Made by a program: the position numbers and the translations under genes. From contig JAZQAZ010000029.1 of the NCBI GenBank assembly GCA_045545475.1, positions 29,644 to 93,643 of the forward strand: DNA of 64,000 bases, in the 5' to 3' direction. Positions 11,480 to 19,284 of the stretch are shown one piece after another. How positions within the stretch are numbered: the first letter of the stretch is position 1; the number at the start of each line of letters is the position of its first letter. The DNA comes from Clostridia bacterium (GTDB taxonomy: Bacteria; Bacillota; Clostridia; CAKSNL01; HGM11501). The notes under the pieces were generated by a model, which was not told the origin of the DNA, searched no databases, and worked only from the letters and a program-made list of their open reading frames with translations.

Positions 11480-12247
11480 TCAGCCGACATTCATCTCTAA
11501 GCGGAGCTTATCTGCAATCAGTGCGATGAATTCGGAATTTGTAGGTTTGCCTTTAAGGGTGCTTACGGTATATCCAAAAAGCTTGTAGAAAAATTCTTCG
11601 TTTCCTCTTGTGCAGGCAACCTCGATTGCGTGACGGATGGCACGTTCAACACGGGATGATGTGGTTTTATGCCGTTTCGCAACCTCTGGATAAAGCTGCT
11701 TTGTAACAGCATGCATAAGCTCAGAATCTTTGACGGTCATCATTATCGCATCTCTTAAATAACTGTAGCCTTTGATGTTCGCAGGAATTCCCACATTATG
11801 AATAACGCCCGTAACCTTTAATTCAAGTGCTTTACCGCTTTCTTCTCCCTCGGTCTTTTTCGCATTGTCAGGGTAAAGGAGCATTTTTATTCTTTCAAAA
11901 AGAGTTTCGTAAGAAGCAGGCTTTGTTATGTAATAATCCGCACCGTAAAGCGATACCATGTTGGAAACATAAGTACCGGAAAGTGCCGAATGTACCACTA
12001 TCGCAGGCTTTTTCTCCGCTCTTGATAAAGCCTTTAACACCCCTATTCCGTCAAGCACCGGCATTACAATATCAAGAATTACAGCATCGGGCGACAGGAG
12101 ATTTATCTTTTCAAGGCCGTCTTTTCCGTTTAATGAAAATCCTACGATTTCAATTTCCCTTTCGCCCGACTCCTTTAAATAGGCATTTATTCCTTCTTCC
12201 ACCTCACGGCTGTCATCAATTACAAGCACTTTTATTTTTTCTTTCAT
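11480..12247 (-). CDS. spo0A: sporulation master regulator Spo0A
   Basis: Receiver domain plus [16 protein letters not shown]...LYPEVAK...[14 protein letters not shown]...KPTNSEFIA. Confidence 0.95.
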
Positions 12248-14631: not shown

Positions 14632-14681
14632 TTGACATTTGTAGCTACACGTGATATACTACGATTGTAGCTACAAGTGTA
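14632..14681 (+). promoter_or_regulatory. SigA promoter overlapped by BlaI/CopY-type operators
   Basis: TTGACA(14632)-N17-TATACT(14655); TACA-NN-TGTA-like boxes GACATTTGTA (14634), TACGATTGTA (14660), TACAAGTGTA (14672). Confidence 0.8.
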
Positions 14682-14717
14682 ATTACACTTACAATTAATC
14701 CCCAAGGAGGCAAAAAA

Positions 14718-15089
14718 ATGTCAAACATAAAGCAAACAATTACGGATTCCGAGTATCAGATTATGAAAATTTTGTGGGATGCAAATGAGAAAATGACCGT
14801 ATCTGACGTATCGGCAAAGCTTGACGGCAACGACTGGACGGCATCCACAGTTTCCACCTTTCTTCAGAGGCTATTGAAAAAAGAAGTGGTTGCCTGCGAT
14901 AAAAGAGGCAAAACCAACCTTTATTACCCCGTTTTATCCCGGAAGGACTACGATTTAAGCGAAACGGAAAGCTTTCTTTCCAAAATTTACAAGGGCTCAA
15001 TCAAAAATATGGTTGCGGCACTTTACGAAAACAAAAAGCTTTCGGATGATGACGTGACAGACCTTAAGAAGATGTTTGAACTGGAGTGA
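14718..15089 (+). CDS. BlaI/MecI/CopY-family repressor
   Basis: ITDSEYQIMKILW...WTASTVSTFLQRLLKK...YYP...FLSKIYKGS. Confidence 0.93.
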   Translation: MSNIKQTITDSEYQIMKILWDANEKMTVSDVSAKLDGNDWTASTVSTFLQRLLKKEVVACDKRGKTNLYYPVLSRKDYDLSETESFLSKIYKGSIKNMVAALYENKKLSDDDVTDLKKMFELE

Positions 15090-15093
15090 TTTT

Positions 15094-15921
15094 ATGGCAG
15101 AGCTTTTTAAGACAACCCTTGTTTTAAGCATTTTTGGTTTTGTTATGACGGCACTGCTTCTTATCATAAAGCCCGTGACGGCAAAAAAACTTCCGGCATC
15201 TTGGCAATATTATATGTGGGTTCTGGTTGTGCTTTCAATGCTTATTCCCGTTTATAAAATTATCCCTTCAAGGGAAATTTATAAAATTCCTGTTGTTCCG
15301 TCTGTCACAACCGAATCTCCCTCCACGCCTGACATAAGCGAAAACGTTGAAGTATTACCGGCGGAAGACACGGTAAAGGAAAATGCAGGCACACCCGTAA
15401 GGCAAAGCAGGACGGGGCTTTACACCATTGCCGCTTTTATCTGGCTTTCGGGAATGGCAATATATCTTTTCATAGTTTCTTTAAGCTATATTTCCTTCAC
15501 CACGAAAAAGCGGAAAAATTCCATTCCCTTAAGGGATGATGCGATATTGAATGAATGCTCAAAATCCCTTAAAATAAAGCGGAAAATCAAGGTTATGGTT
15601 TCGGAAAATTTAGATTCTCCCATGCTTGTGGGCGTGTTTTTCCCGGTAATTTATATCCCTGACGGGGAAATTCCTCCCGAAAAGCTTAAAATGATTTTCC
15701 TTCACGAGCTTAACCACTATAAAAGGAAGGATTTAATTTTCAAGTGGCTTTCTGTCTTAACCAATATGATACATTGGTTTAATCCCCTTTCCTATCTTTT
15801 ATGCTCCGCTTTAAGCGAAGCCTGTGAAATTTCCTGCGATATGGCTGTAACCAGAAATATGACGGAGGATGAGCAAAGACTTTATATGCAGACGATTTTA
15901 GACCTTGCAAAAAGGAGGTAA
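15094..15921 (+). CDS. BlaR1-type M56 metallopeptidase, N-terminal/catalytic part only
   Basis: TM segments, SPMLVGVFFP, HELNHYKRKD (HExxH), HWFNP, EISCD. Ends at YMQTILDLAKRR without the LKRR helix, last TM or sensor domain. Confidence 0.9.
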   Translation: MAELFKTTLVLSIFGFVMTALLLIIKPVTAKKLPASWQYYMWVLVVLSMLIPVYKIIPSREIYKIPVVPSVTTESPSTPDISENVEVLPAEDTVKENAGTPVRQSRTGLYTIAAFIWLSGMAIYLFIVSLSYISFTTKKRKNSIPLRDDAILNECSKSLKIKRKIKVMVSENLDSPMLVGVFFPVIYIPDGEIPPEKLKMIFLHELNHYKRKDLIFKWLSVLTNMIHWFNPLSYLLCSALSEACEISCDMAVTRNMTEDEQRLYMQTILDLAKRR

Positions 15922-15923
15922 CT

Positions 15924-17021
15924 ATGCTGGAAAAATTATACTCAACCAAAATGAGCGAAGACAGAAAAAGCCTTCAGAGGCGTTTTTCAAAAATCCGCAA
16001 AAAGAGCGGAAAGACTTCTAAAATAATTGCCGTAATTCTTTCGGCGGTTTTGATTATTGCCGTTTTAACCGTTTCCTCCATAGTAGGCTCACGCCTTGGC
16101 GTCCGCGATTACTCTCTTTCGGATGCCGAATATTCCGCCTTGCTTGAAAGTCGGCTCGGTGCGGTTATGGCGGACATATATTATGCCGACAGACAAAAGA
16201 TTTTAGTTCATTACGGCTCCGCCCTTTTTATTCTCGGCACCAATCCGCCACCCGAAAACCCTATGCTTTCTTCCGAATTTGATTTTGTGATAAATCTTGA
16301 AAAGCTTAACATATCAAAAAATCAGCAGGGAAGCAACATTCTTGAAGTAAAAGTGGATAAGGACGGTAAAAACGCCTATCTTTATTCCGTTGGACCCATC
16401 GATGAAATAAAGGGCTTTGACGAATATATCTTAAGCCTTGAAACGGGAAGCGTGAAAAAAGGCAGTGCGCCCAAAGATGCCGAATATTTCAGTGGCCGTG
16501 CAGACAGCTCCACTACCCTATTAAATCCTTTCGGATGGTTCAGCAACACCTCAGTTATAGACGGCGATAAAATTTACTACCTCACCTGCGAAAACGGAAA
16601 GGCAGAGGGAATTCAGCTTGTTACGGTAAATCATCTTACGGGGGAAACCTCGTCACGGTTTATCTTCAATCCCGCATCAGCCGATATTAGCTTTTTCGAA
16701 CCGAAGGATATAAAGGATATTACGGAAGCCCGCCTTATTTCAGGGGACATTGACATTGTCATAAAAAACGAAGTCAAGCTTTCCGAAATAGAAGAAATGC
16801 TTTCTTCGGCTGAAATTATCTATGGCGGTACGGCGTGCTCCTTTACCGCAGATCTGATACTGAAAAGAGCCGACGGTGCTTCCGGTAAGGTTACCCTTGC
16901 CACGGATAGCTGTGCCGTATATAAATGCGGCAGCACCTATTATGATTACAGCGATGGTGACAACACCCGTATGTTTGACCTCCTCGGGGTAACCCACGAA
17001 TGGATTTTAAAAGCATATTAA
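15924..17021 (+). CDS. M56 C-terminal-module protein 1 (LQRRF helix + TM + unknown extracellular domain)
   Basis: AGGAGG RBS; N-terminus MLEKLYSTKMSEDRKSLQRRFSKI..GKTSKII followed by a hydrophobic helix. Confidence 0.8.
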   Translation: MLEKLYSTKMSEDRKSLQRRFSKIRKKSGKTSKIIAVILSAVLIIAVLTVSSIVGSRLGVRDYSLSDAEYSALLESRLGAVMADIYYADRQKILVHYGSALFILGTNPPPENPMLSSEFDFVINLEKLNISKNQQGSNILEVKVDKDGKNAYLYSVGPIDEIKGFDEYILSLETGSVKKGSAPKDAEYFSGRADSSTTLLNPFGWFSNTSVIDGDKIYYLTCENGKAEGIQLVTVNHLTGETSSRFIFNPASADISFFEPKDIKDITEARLISGDIDIVIKNEVKLSEIEEMLSSAEIIYGGTACSFTADLILKRADGASGKVTLATDSCAVYKCGSTYYDYSDGDNTRMFDLLGVTHEWILKAY

Positions 17022-17069
17022 GCCGATGGGCGTCTGACCCCACAAGGCTTATGATTAAAGGAGGCAACT

Positions 17070-17792
17070 ATGTTAGAAAAATTATACACCACAAAAATGA
17101 GTGACGATAAAAAGGTTTTAAAGAGGAGGTTTTCAAAAATCAGCCGGAAAAACGGAAAGACTTCCAAAATAATTTCTGCGTTAACAGCGCTTTTACTTTC
17201 GATAACGCTTCTTTCGGGCTATGCCGTCATGGCTGTTTTAGACCCCAGCGAGGAAATCAAGGAAGAATATGCCCTTTCCCTTATAGACTATGAAATTTTA
17301 AGGGGCTATCCCGACGGAAAAATGCGACTTGATGAGCCGATAACCAATGCAGAAGCGATTACTCTTATACTTCGTGCCCACAAAGGCTACAGGGATATGC
17401 TCGAAACTTACATCCCAAAAGATGAAAGCGAAAATCACTGGGCATATAAGGAAATTGCCCTTGCAAAGGATTTGAAAATTGCAGAAAGCGACATAGTGCC
17501 GGATGAAATTATTACGGTATCTGGCTTTTCAAAGATGCTCGTTCTTCTTTTAGGCTATGGCGTAAAGGCGGAGCAACGTGGCGGAGATTATGTTTCCGTT
17601 GCAAAAAGGCTCGGCATTTTTGAAGGACTTGATAAAAATGCCGGAGATATTTTAACAAGAAAAGATGCCGCATTGATGCTGTCAAACGCCCTTGACGTGC
17701 CCTTTATGGAAGCTTCTTCCTATAATGCAGAAATAAAAACTTTAGAGTATGTAATTAAAGAGGGCAATACCTTAAGAAGTCTTCTCGATTAA
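17070..17792 (+). CDS. M56 C-terminal-module protein 2 (LKRRF helix + TM + SLH domains)
   Basis: AGGAGG RBS; MLEKLYTTKMSDDKKVLKRRFSKI..GKTSKII; SLH motifs ILRGYPDG....PITNAEA, HWAYKEI, LTRKDAA. Confidence 0.85.
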   Translation: MLEKLYTTKMSDDKKVLKRRFSKISRKNGKTSKIISALTALLLSITLLSGYAVMAVLDPSEEIKEEYALSLIDYEILRGYPDGKMRLDEPITNAEAITLILRAHKGYRDMLETYIPKDESENHWAYKEIALAKDLKIAESDIVPDEIITVSGFSKMLVLLLGYGVKAEQRGGDYVSVAKRLGIFEGLDKNAGDILTRKDAALMLSNALDVPFMEASSYNAEIKTLEYVIKEGNTLRSLLD

Positions 17793-17796
17793 CGAA

Positions 17797-17827
17797 AAAA
17801 CACATCATCCGACGGATGATGTGTTTT
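17797..17827. terminator. bidirectional terminator closing the blaI operon
   Basis: AAAACACATCATCCG-A-CGGATGATGTGTTTT. Confidence 0.8.
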
Positions 17828-17835
17828 CATTATCT

Positions 17836-19161
17836 TTATGCTGCGTTATACCAGGGTTCGGTTTTTACTTTTTCCAGAACTATTCTTTTGAATGTTGTAA
17901 ACGCCTGTTCCTTTGTAAATGTTCCGCCAGGGTTAAAGCTGCCGTCTCCCATACCCATCATGATGTTTCCATAAGTGCATGAATATACGCTTTCCCTTGC
18001 CCACGATGAAATCTTACGGTCGTCAGAATATTCACTGTCCGCTCCTCCCGGATTAAATTTTTCTCCTATAAGATGCTTACACATTCTGAACAAAATTGCA
18101 GAAGCTTCTTCTCTTGTAATAAGATCATCTGGTGCAAAAATCCCGTTGCCCTTTCCGTTTATTATTCCGAGGCTGTTAAGAAGTGCAACATCGTGACTTT
18201 TGGTATCCTTAAACTTTGACTCATACTCTGTTACATCGACGTATTCATCTGACTGTCCTATAATTATTCTTGCCGCATAGGTGCAGAACTCTTCACGGGT
18301 AACCGGTTTTGTATAGTCATCGTTATCATCTATTTTTATAGCTCCGTTTGTGCACATAAACATAACACTGTCAAACGCCCAATCGCTGCAGTTAACCTCA
18401 TAAGGTCCACCTGTGCTTACAATTTCCGTATTTTTCGGCATAAGATATTCGCCATTTACGCGAATACTTGTCTCTAAAACACTATGTTCCTCATCGTTTT
18501 CACCGATATATTTCAATACCTCACCACTATAGCGGGAAGGTGCCTTATATGAAGCTATAAGTTTTTCATTTATATATAGGTAAAAACAGTTTTCTCCTTC
18601 TTTGCGACCGGAAAGATCCTTTAATATTTCAGCATATTTTGCCTCGCCCTCATCAGTGAAAGAAAATGTCAGTGCAGTTTTTACACCGGGATGCTTGTCT
18701 ATAAGCATATCATCTTCGCTTCCGTCGTATGTGGCATTTACATAATAAGTAACCTGCTCATCATCATCCCACATAATTCTTGTATATACCGAAGCATTGG
18801 ATAAATGTGTTTCGTCCATCAACACATTTCCCTCAAAATCTCTTATTTCAAAACCGGGAACTCTTTTAAGTCTGTCTTCTACTTTGTCGATATCAACAGG
18901 TTTTTCAAAAATTGCTGTTATTATCTCTCTTTCTCCTTCCGGGTCAAATTCTGTGAGATAATATTTCGCGCCAAGAGATTCCAATTTATCGTATACCACA
19001 TTCCCCGAAACCTGGTTTATGTCGTAATAAGCCAGCTTATCGTCATCATTATACTCTACGGCAACACTTACCGTATAAACCTCTTTCGCTATGGCGGGAA
19101 TCACCATAATCAGGCTTGTAAGAACTGCAATTGTAAGTAAAATTAAAAGTCTCTTTTTCAT
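17836..19161 (-). CDS. secreted SLH-domain protein with a SecD-P1-like N-terminal region
   Basis: Signal peptide; three C-terminal SLH repeats (TREEF, GIINGKGNGIFAPDDLITREEA, GMGDGSFNP). Confidence 0.8.
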   Translation of the reverse strand: MKKRLLILLTIAVLTSLIMVIPAIAKEVYTVSVAVEYNDDDKLAYYDINQVSGNVVYDKLESLGAKYYLTEFDPEGEREIITAIFEKPVDIDKVEDRLKRVPGFEIRDFEGNVLMDETHLSNASVYTRIMWDDDEQVTYYVNATYDGSEDDMLIDKHPGVKTALTFSFTDEGEAKYAEILKDLSGRKEGENCFYLYINEKLIASYKAPSRYSGEVLKYIGENDEEHSVLETSIRVNGEYLMPKNTEIVSTGGPYEVNCSDWAFDSVMFMCTNGAIKIDDNDDYTKPVTREEFCTYAARIIIGQSDEYVDVTEYESKFKDTKSHDVALLNSLGIINGKGNGIFAPDDLITREEASAILFRMCKHLIGEKFNPGGADSEYSDDRKISSWARESVYSCTYGNIMMGMGDGSFNPGGTFTKEQAFTTFKRIVLEKVKTEPWYNAA

Positions 19162-19284
19162 AATGCACTCTCCTTTTCTTCCCGTCAAGTATACCACAAA
19201 AAGTCTTTTAAGACAAGGAAATGAATTAAATAATTAAAGATTATTTTATTAAGATAGAAAACGGCTGTTTTACAGCCGTTTTCT

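Follow-up and report, generated by a model that had tools for sequence, protein, structure and literature searches.

The window analysed here, a stretch of 64,000 nucleotides (nt) from Clostridia bacterium (GenBank assembly GCA_045545475.1, contig JAZQAZ010000029.1, positions 29,644 to 93,643), contains an operon in which, judged from its sequence and that of its relatives, a BlaR1-type receptor gene has undergone a genuine fission and is inherited in the split state. The gene of a BlaI-family repressor is followed by that of a truncated M56 metalloprotease and by two open reading frames (ORFs), ORF1 and ORF2, which share an N-terminal leader and are unrelated in their extracellular parts. We consider it probable that the protease core is completed in trans by these alternative sensor subunits, which would gate the cleavage of BlaI. 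All feature positions are given as coordinates of the whole window.

The operon consists of four ORFs, all on the + strand. blaI (14718-15089) encodes a winged-helix repressor of the BlaI/MecI/CopY family with 123 amino acids (PF03965, E = 1.1e-32). The gene at 15094-15921 was assigned by PF05569 and its motifs to a truncated zinc-metalloprotease core of the M56 (BlaR1) type with 275 amino acids. According to the ORF list, ORF1 (15924-17021) has 365 and ORF2 (17070-17792) 240 amino acids. An intrinsic-terminator-like hairpin (17797-17827, + strand) with a 14-bp stem and then a T-rich tail closes the operon. This arrangement had been described in the initial annotation and was recovered in full, as were the motifs HELNH, HWFNP and E-I-S-C-D of the M56 protein and its end at ...YMQTILDLAKRR. 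The near-identity of the two leaders, followed by unrelated remainders, could likewise be reproduced: within the first 49 residues of ORF1 and ORF2, 30 are identical (61%; E = 6e-16), and the proteins have nothing else in common. Both ORFs have a ribosome-binding site and start of their own, as had been claimed, although the shared motif is one base longer than annotated and reads AAGGAGG-(T/C)-AACT-ATG instead of AAGGAGG-AACT-ATG. For the M56 gene a TTG at 15076 is an alternative start, giving 281 instead of 275 amino acids. The ATG at 15094 appears more likely, since it is preceded by GGAG and matches the start of the fused relatives described below.

In ORF1 the leader comprises residues 1-34 (15924-16025, + strand) and reads MLEKLYSTK|MS, followed by an amphipathic helix L17-Q-R-R20-F-S-K-I as counterpart of helix α9 of BlaR1. 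The TM helix at residues 33-55 (16020-16088, + strand), the counterpart of the last TM helix of BlaR1, was located by an AlphaFold2 (AF2) helix and by alignment to fused relatives. Behind it lies a β-rich ectodomain of ~310 residues without known family (16089-17021, + strand). The leader (residues 1-34) and TM helix (residues 34-56) of ORF2 occupy 17070-17237 on the + strand, with the ribosome-binding site AAGGAGG at 17053-17059, and its SLH-like ectodomain of ~185 residues 17238-17792 on the same strand. ORF1 and ORF2 are separated by 48 nt, so ORF2 cannot be produced by a frameshift from M56. The whole genome holds one M56 gene, one blaI and two leader ORFs, namely ORF1 and ORF2. The single M56 protein is thus the sole possible protease partner of the modules.

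The spacer between ORF1 and ORF2 is itself strain-variable. In an RNA-library contig 43 nt of the region 17015-17059 are exchanged for 7 other letters, and in genome G010 (L004:1612-1900) the spacer measures ~290 nt as compared to 48 nt in the window.

The position of the break could be narrowed down by profile comparisons. Against PF05569 the M56 protein scores 183.1 bits (cut-off 31; E = 9.1e-54) and covers profile positions 3-267 of 296 only. The NCBIfam model blaR1_generic is matched over positions 10-272 of 585 only, with scores below the cut-offs of blaR1_generic (134.8 vs 400), MecR1 (68.7 vs 1200) and BlaR1 (47 vs 1200). H204, E205, H208, E245 and D249 are invariant in 29 split cores, and the gluzincin motifs HExxH and ExxxD are both present. 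In S. aureus BlaR1 they are found as H201ExxH and E242xxxD (PMC9834060; all statements on the BlaR1 structure refer to passages of that paper). A profile of the 29 split cores aligns to residues 3-268 of S. aureus BlaR1 (8EXP) with E = 1.7e-18, and the profile ends ~3 positions later. By these alignments the M56 gene stops at the end of helix α8, at about BlaR1 residue 272-274. The autocleavage loop of BlaR1 comprises residues 271-289, between α8 and the domain-swapped α9, and its scissile bond is Ser283|Phe284 (PMC9834060). Hence the break falls at the start of the autocleavage loop, ~9 residues before this bond. The suggestion of the initial annotation that the gene is pre-split near the autocleavage loop is borne out and sharpened by the profile end (~271), the NCBIfam end (272) and the extent of the loop.

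As aligned, the M56 protein contains no autocleavage loop, α9, last TM helix or sensor of any kind and is not a canonical single-chain BlaR1/MecR1. By the same alignments, it is the sensor subunit that retains the cleavage-site-like peptide together with the catalytic Arg and the last TM helix. All 59 complete split cores finish within a few residues of YM(K/Q)TIL.L... This number leaves out L029 and L054, where the M56 core is spread over two frames, which could be due to a frameshift, a pseudogene or an assembly error. Equating the KRR at the M56 C-terminus with the K-R-R of BlaR1 was considered and rejected, since other cores of the family end in ...LVE, ...LAE or ...ATERS; the counterpart of the R-R in BlaR1 (Arg293/Arg294) is R19-R20 of the leader.

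By far the most variable part of the operon among close relatives is found at M56 residues ~66-100 (15290-15390), an extracellular loop after the early TM helices, where substitutions are dense; the dN/dS of M56 (0.46-0.47) also exceeds that of the modules (0.12-0.25). The loop corresponds to the extracellular loop EL1 of BlaR1, which sits in the binding groove of the sensor (PMC9834060). By analogy, it may be a contact of the core with the module ectodomains.

The link between leader and BlaR1 was established via fused relatives. Two genomes of the same genus (G005 and G008) encode one-piece, BlaI-adjacent M56 proteins of 720 and 722 amino acids with an ORF1-type ectodomain. M56 residues 1-281 align to residues 1-256 of the fused relatives and ORF1 residues 7-359 to residues 263-591, so that M56 and ORF1 tile the fused protein without overlap. 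On the fused protein the Pfam M56 model reaches position 295 of 296, so the terminal part of the M56 domain, absent from the window's gene, is represented by the leader. Comparison of 29 leaders with 14 fused proteins by hhalign placed leader columns 7-49 on residues 263-305 in the same register (E = 6.4e-5, probability 64%). A profile of the fused family aligns through BlaR1 residue 347, with the invariant Arg (R276 of the fused protein) on Arg294, NGKK on N285-K288 and GTTaL over L280-F284. A phmmer search with a single fused protein against the PDB gave 0 matches at E ≤ 0.01, and profiles were needed for this step. As ORF1 residue r corresponds to fused residue r+256, leader R20 is the counterpart of Arg294. 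With an ungapped back-count M10 falls on Phe284 and Y6-T7-T8-K9 occupy P4-P1, and the spacing between hydrophobic residue and Arg is 10 in BlaR1, the fused family and the leader alike. In M10 and R20, both invariant, the leader would thus offer the bulky hydrophobic P1' residue of the loop and, 10 residues further on, the conserved α9 Arg, and its T-T-K|M motif looks cleavage-site-like. The TM segment of ORF1 aligns to that of the fused relatives and carries basic residues on its N-terminal side; the leader of ORF2 is matched by the leader profile. The initial annotation had taken the leader for the post-catalytic segment of BlaR1, an assignment supported by the tiling of the fused proteins, the hhalign register and the position of the invariant Arg. 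In terms of sequence comparison, we regard the anatomy and the homology mapping as secure.

In BlaR1, Arg294' of the partner chain forms a salt bridge with Asp246, points at the P1' residue and completes the active site (PMC9834060). The corresponding R20 is invariant in 120 representative modules (clustered at 50% identity), and M1, T8, K9, M10, R20, F21 and I24 are invariant in 29 loci. Such conservation in these alignments exceeds what one would expect of a leader that is only a relic.

To describe the distribution of the split form, one genome per species was scanned with two leader patterns. In total, 76 loci were obtained, all from Clostridia metagenome-assembled genomes (MAGs) or gut metagenome bins according to the titles of their records. 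Genome searches on family and order level gave the same 14 genomes as the search for relatives. In the 76 loci, 133 of the 134 leader matches start their own ORF, within 29 codons of the preceding in-frame stop. The lone exception is a weak match (E = 7.5e-4) inside a fused protein of 656 amino acids in L038. For eight of the 76 the sequence on the upstream side is practically missing. Among the remaining 68 loci, 66 show a truncated M56 gene, usually with blaI before it, immediately upstream of one to four leader ORFs. An index-free HMMER scan of 1.84 billion representative proteins revealed 200 leader proteins at E ≤ 0.001, 124 of them at E ≤ 1e-10, and the leader starts within the first 24 residues in all 150 matches listed (of 200).

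Single loci deviate from the common arrangement. L038 (293-7588) carries a fused blaI-M56 pair (the 656-amino-acid frame) directly upstream of a complete split operon with three modules. In L073 (4001-5083) an orphan leader module follows two unrelated exported proteins, with neither blaI nor M56 adjacent. L076, which by the prefix of the contig name belongs to the same MAG, is a complete split operon, which suggests that modules can be encoded away from their own protease. In L080 (3483-5146) the next gene after blaI, at a distance of 135 nt, is a leader module, and M56 is missing from between the two; this locus could be a deletion variant, or M56 could be located elsewhere in that genome.

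In a quick maximum-likelihood tree the 60 split cores were found on one side of a branch with a Shimodaira-Hasegawa-like approximate likelihood ratio test value (SH-aLRT) of 95 and the 14 fused cores on the other. The topology agrees with the fission having happened once, with the reservation that the split set was gathered by leader similarity and that the fused set consists of relatives of one protein. Of the fused cores in this tree, that of L038, on a long branch, is nearest to the split clade.

The split itself was confirmed by comparison with independent data. At the M56/ORF1 junction the window agrees letter by letter (...GCAAAAAGGAGGTAACTATG...) with three further species-level genomes of the genus, in which ORF1 is 95-96% identical, and contigs of three separate studies bridge this junction without an indel. 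The sole indel reported in the 3.3-kb stretch is located at 17811 in the terminator. Ratios of nonsynonymous to synonymous substitution rates (dN/dS) against two relatives were 0.07-0.10 for blaI, 0.46-0.47 for M56, 0.12-0.16 for ORF1 and 0.19-0.25 for ORF2, which shows purifying selection. One explanation to be weighed takes the split for a sequencing or assembly frameshift, or for a recent pseudogene of a one-piece M56 gene, such as the genes for proteins of 720 and 722 amino acids with an ORF1-type ectodomain carried by the two same-genus genomes. These fused genes are, however, only 28-36% identical to those of the window, and their cores lie across the branch with SH-aLRT 95 from the split cores. 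The junction found in four genomes, the contigs of three independent studies, the same break position in 59 complete cores and dN/dS values well under 1 speak against it as well. The check for a fused frame that the initial annotation called for gave no sign of one, neither in the junctions nor in the bridging contigs; this explanation retains practically no probability and is already refuted. Alternatively, programmed -1 frameshifting or stop read-through at the junction (A-AAA-AGG-AGG-TAA) might still make one fused protein. Indeed, the ORF1 frame is open for 17 codons 5' of the ATG (382 amino acids open vs 365), and an A-rich run and the Shine-Dalgarno-like AGGAGG are found at the junction. 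Across 66 junctions, though, the gap varies from -8 to +21 nt, and the two genes stand in each of the three possible relative frames (in 29, 19 and 18 cases); conservation of a recoding site is thereby excluded. The start is ATG in 64 of these 66, with Met1 invariant; the heptamer in the window is not a canonical X-XXY-YYZ slippery site, and the second to fourth modules, including ORF2, could not be fused by such a route. We regard recoding at the junction as very improbable.

Contigs of the metatranscriptome library X18 cover parts of all four genes (23 of 30 bins); as DNA carry-over is possible, we do not take them as a sign of expression. Contigs of 191 nt in runs X2 and X3 agree with the window over no more than 37 bases at the start of the ORF2 leader region (17067-17103) and diverge on both sides; they are probably derived from further genes with a leader that belong to other organisms in these samples.

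The modules are diverse behind the TM helix. One, two, three and four modules per locus were found in 33, 33, 7 and 3 of the 76 loci, several of which are cut by contig ends, and 60 of 70 within-locus module pairs exhibit no detectable ectodomain similarity. The idea that new sensors are added by reuse of the leader is supported by these comparative data. A Pfam census on 120 representatives of 190 amino acids or more yielded Cu_amine_oxidN1 in 41, Peptidase_M23 in 21, DUF4829 and Big_14 in three each, LytR_cpsA_psr and DUF4825 in two each, and DUF5050, SLH, Biotin_lipoyl and SnoaL_3 in one each. Single-linkage clustering of the ectodomains was dropped as a measure of diversity: 91 of the 120 proteins were chained in one cluster. 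The penicillin-binding domain PF00905 was found neither on ORF1 and ORF2 by Pfam nor among the families listed for the 120 representatives, in agreement with the earlier remark that neither module resembles a penicillin-binding domain. Taken together, the M23, LCP, SLH and copper-amine-oxidase-N-like ectodomains point to cell-wall surveillance in gut Clostridia.

ORF1 has no Pfam or NCBIfam match. Its AF2 model (mean predicted local distance difference test score, pLDDT, 78.8) contains helices at 14-27 and 30-63 and a β-rich domain. For the ectodomain the best score in the ESM Atlas was 0.86, below the level at which a match is more than a lead. Domains of the ORF1 type also occur in fused M56 proteins. 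ORF2 scores 22.3 bits against Pfam SLH (PF00395) over the whole protein with a cut-off of 20.8, no single stretch passing alone, and precomputed annotation lists PF00395 on three of six ORF2 homologues. Clear SLH repeats (PF00395, E = 3.6e-20) were found in the product of the convergent gene at 17836-19197 (- strand; 453 amino acids, signal-anchor-like N-terminus). An SLH-anchored wall protein therefore adjoins the SLH-like sensor module.

On the side of the repressor, an adjacent protein of the BlaI/MecI family with a conserved Asn-hydrophobic site and dyad operators is present. BlaI scores below the cut-offs of the NCBIfam BlaI models. Of 60 BlaI proteins, 58 have N at position 97 and every one has L, M or F at position 98, and K96-N97|M98-V-A-A-L is likely to be the cleavage site, as predicted from this motif. 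K-N|(L/M/F)-V-A-A-L resembles the site named as Asn101|Phe102 for BlaI (PMC9834060), a likeness of motifs and not of aligned sequences. A promoter-like site (14632-14660, + strand) combines TTGACA, a 17-nt spacer and TATACT with a TG before the -10 hexamer and agrees with the consensus in 11 of 12 positions. Three TGTA-NN-TACA dyads, strandless putative BlaI-type operators at 14640-14687, lie between and just 3' of the hexamers, the promoter overlapping the first dyad. TGTAGCTACA starts at 14640 and 14666 and TGTAATTACA at 14678. In the 2.74-Mb genome TGTAGCTACA occurs only twice, both times at the operon promoter, which is the only TGTA-NN-TACA dyad cluster in the genome. Of the 58 blaI starts surveyed, 41 have at least one dyad in the 160 bp before them. 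A wider regulon was considered as well; single TGTAATTACA sites occur nine times genome-wide, about the number estimated from base composition, and no further members are claimed.

The interaction of the subunits was addressed by complex prediction. For the core with a leader-TM piece of 70 amino acids a score of 0.35 was obtained, compared to 0.01 for the best control; the contacts coincide to at least 78% among three runs, and the partner has a pLDDT of 66 or more. In the benchmark of this score the mark was reached by 58 of 80 solved complexes and by 2 of 110 mismatched pairs. At scores ≤ 0.60 it was reached by 7 of those 80 and by both mismatches. Since the structure of BlaR1 is solved, the pass may reflect likeness to it. 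The complex modelling suggested in the initial annotation thus supports a pairing weakly. We infer the binding of M56 to the modules mainly from the homology, the conservation of the leader and a core without the active-site residue that the leader carries.

The following course of events can be proposed on the model of BlaR1; assembly, gating, BlaI cleavage and the nature of the signals we infer throughout. ORF1 and ORF2 would each supply the missing C-terminal elements, namely a cleavage-site-like peptide (LY-T-T-K|M-S), α9 with its Arg and the last TM helix. Probably dimeric like BlaR1, the M56 core would dock one or two modules via the leader, and the N-terminal peptide of the module would lie in the catalytic cleft as a substrate or pseudo-substrate. 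In BlaR1 the cleft is filled by the autocleavage loop, intact or cut, and cleavage of BlaI is possible only after the loop has moved out (PMC9834060). A signal at the ectodomain might then shift the TM helix and α9, clear the cleft and permit cleavage of BlaI at about N97|M98, which would de-repress the operon via the three TGTA-NN-TACA dyads. Different modules would in this manner feed different envelope cues into one protease and one repressor.

In a more specific version, to which we give slightly less than even credence, the system is a plug-and-play receptor: the dimeric core would be incomplete alone, and docked subunits would donate in trans both the α9 Arg and the peptide plugging the cleft. 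If so, mixed dimers could integrate two different envelope cues, and the core could also take up orphan modules encoded at other places in the genome, such as that of L073. To gain a new input it would suffice to put the 34-amino-acid leader and the TM helix before any exported domain. The system would also represent a natural, permanently 'pre-cut' BlaR1 in which scission is separated from signalling, which is hard to achieve in the staphylococcal receptor.

Several observations weigh against a split receptor with interchangeable sensors. The sole evidence of interaction is the computational pass, which is weak and may derive from the known structure of BlaR1. At the scissile site the HMMER alignment, with two single-residue inserts there, leaves the register uncertain by 1-2 residues. 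Leader-only pieces of 60 amino acids have no PF05569 match in Pfam even at E ≤ 10, chance-level matches only, and the leader profile gave 0 matches at E ≤ 10 against PDB sequences; with the leader alone recognised by neither, the mapping depends on the fused intermediates. A fold search with the ORF1 model led to no assignment, the best PDB matches being β-propellers with a TM-score ≤ 0.20, and the AF2 model of ORF2 (pLDDT 53.9) is too poor for fold comparison. Two of the 68 loci, L073 and L080, have a module without an adjacent M56 gene. The survey patterns start with Met-Leu-Glu..., which favours stand-alone forms and is offset by the unbiased HMMER scan. Finally, the sole clustered dyads lie at the operon's own promoter and no separate output gene is evident. 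As the operon is the sole visible BlaI target, the modules could be outputs as much as inputs.

This last point leads to the reading that the modules are regulated outputs or substrates and not sensors. The leader would then serve as a docking or cleavage tag, cut by M56 at K9|M10, and the modules would be envelope products such as SLH-binding proteins, M23 hydrolases and LCP ligases, while the signal is sensed elsewhere, e.g. by the extracellular loop of M56. The dyad cluster, which leaves the modules as the only visible regulated products, fits this reading. So do enzyme-like ectodomains (Peptidase_M23, 21 of 120; LytR_cpsA_psr, 2 of 120), the retained cleavage-site-like T-T-K|M and, according to passages of a 2026 paper, the C. 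difficile system CenIR, which controls an exported protein and a peptidoglycan hydrolase (PMC13492132). A tag would, however, explain neither the α9 segment, whose invariant Arg is predicted to complete the active site of M56, nor the TM helix that is missing from the core, and domains of the ORF1, M23 and DUF4825 types hold the sensor position in one-piece M56 proteins. We consider modules that are outputs only unlikely; an output function is also compatible with the split receptor, as a module can be sensor and output both. Still less probable, in our estimate, is that the M56 core functions on its own without any sensor, in the manner of the mycobacterial BlaR homologues that carry no transpeptidase domain. 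ORF1 and ORF2 would then be co-transcribed membrane proteins that do not interact with it today, and their leaders a mere record of the fission. BlaR homologues without a penicillin-binding domain do exist and are described as common in the same passages (PMC13492132), the complex prediction is weak, and orphan modules occur. Yet a relic would decay, whereas the leader residues from M1 to I24 named above are invariant across loci with unrelated ectodomains. New modules retain the leader while everything after the TM helix changes, and the core has no counterpart of Arg294. Completion of the core in trans by the modules is the interpretation we prefer.

Apart from the operon, a 255-amino-acid ORF at 11480-12247 (- strand) has, by eye, a response-regulator-like N-terminus and a Spo0A-like C-terminus; it is unrelated to the operon.

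How autocleavage, the swapped α9 and the sensor jointly gate repressor cleavage is still unresolved for BlaR1/MecR1 (PMC9834060). A family whose chain is already broken in the autocleavage loop offers a tractable system, with peptide and catalytic Arg on a separate, exchangeable polypeptide. It would also mean that several unrelated extracellular domains can serve one protease-repressor pair, a modularity unreported for the BlaR-type family. Our searches of the literature outside subscription journals met with no account of an M56 receptor that is split or made of several subunits. For one-piece M56 proteins 254 domain architectures have been reported, ~6% with a transpeptidase domain and 96% near a BlaI gene; the text passages of that paper do not mention the split form, and its Table S3 and Fig. 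7 data may list M56-only entries (PMC13492132). Annotation could benefit as well: ~200 protein clusters (50% identity) are concerned; at present neither Pfam nor NCBIfam matches the leader part of the modules, and the cores resemble truncated BlaR genes.

Among the closest known systems are the fused proteins of the same genus (L005 and L006, 720 and 722 amino acids), which share domain order, ectodomain family and the T-T followed by a hydrophobic residue and an Arg 10 residues later. They differ by one continuous frame, only 28-36% identity to the window proteins, an extra C-terminal domain and cores outside the split clade. The one-piece BlaR-like M56 proteins (C. difficile CenR, M56-M23, M56-DUF4825 and M56-TonB_C, as described in passages of PMC13492132) are similar in their diverse ectodomains that do not bind β-lactams, their linkage to blaI and a likely role in envelope sensing. 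M23, DUF4825 and ORF1-type ectodomains even occur in both fused and split forms. In contrast to the window system, each of these consists of one polypeptide in which a protease is coupled to a single sensor.

S. aureus BlaR1/MecR1 with BlaI/MecI (PDB 8EXP-8EXT; PMC9834060) shares the M56 gluzincin core with HExxH and ExxxD and equivalent TM helices, an adjacent BlaI-family repressor and dyads of the TGTA/TACA type. The order of α8, loop with hydrophobic P1', α9 with R-R, last TM helix and extracellular domain is the same. The window system differs in having no penicillin-binding domain and no β-lactamase or PBP2a-type target gene nearby. In the staphylococcal receptor the α9 Arg already works in trans, and the cryo-electron microscopy structure shows the two fragments still joined in one assembly after autocleavage (PMC9834060). 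In the window the chain is broken genetically, ~9 residues before the counterpart of the autocleavage bond, and its C-terminal half is provided in this family by one to four genes.

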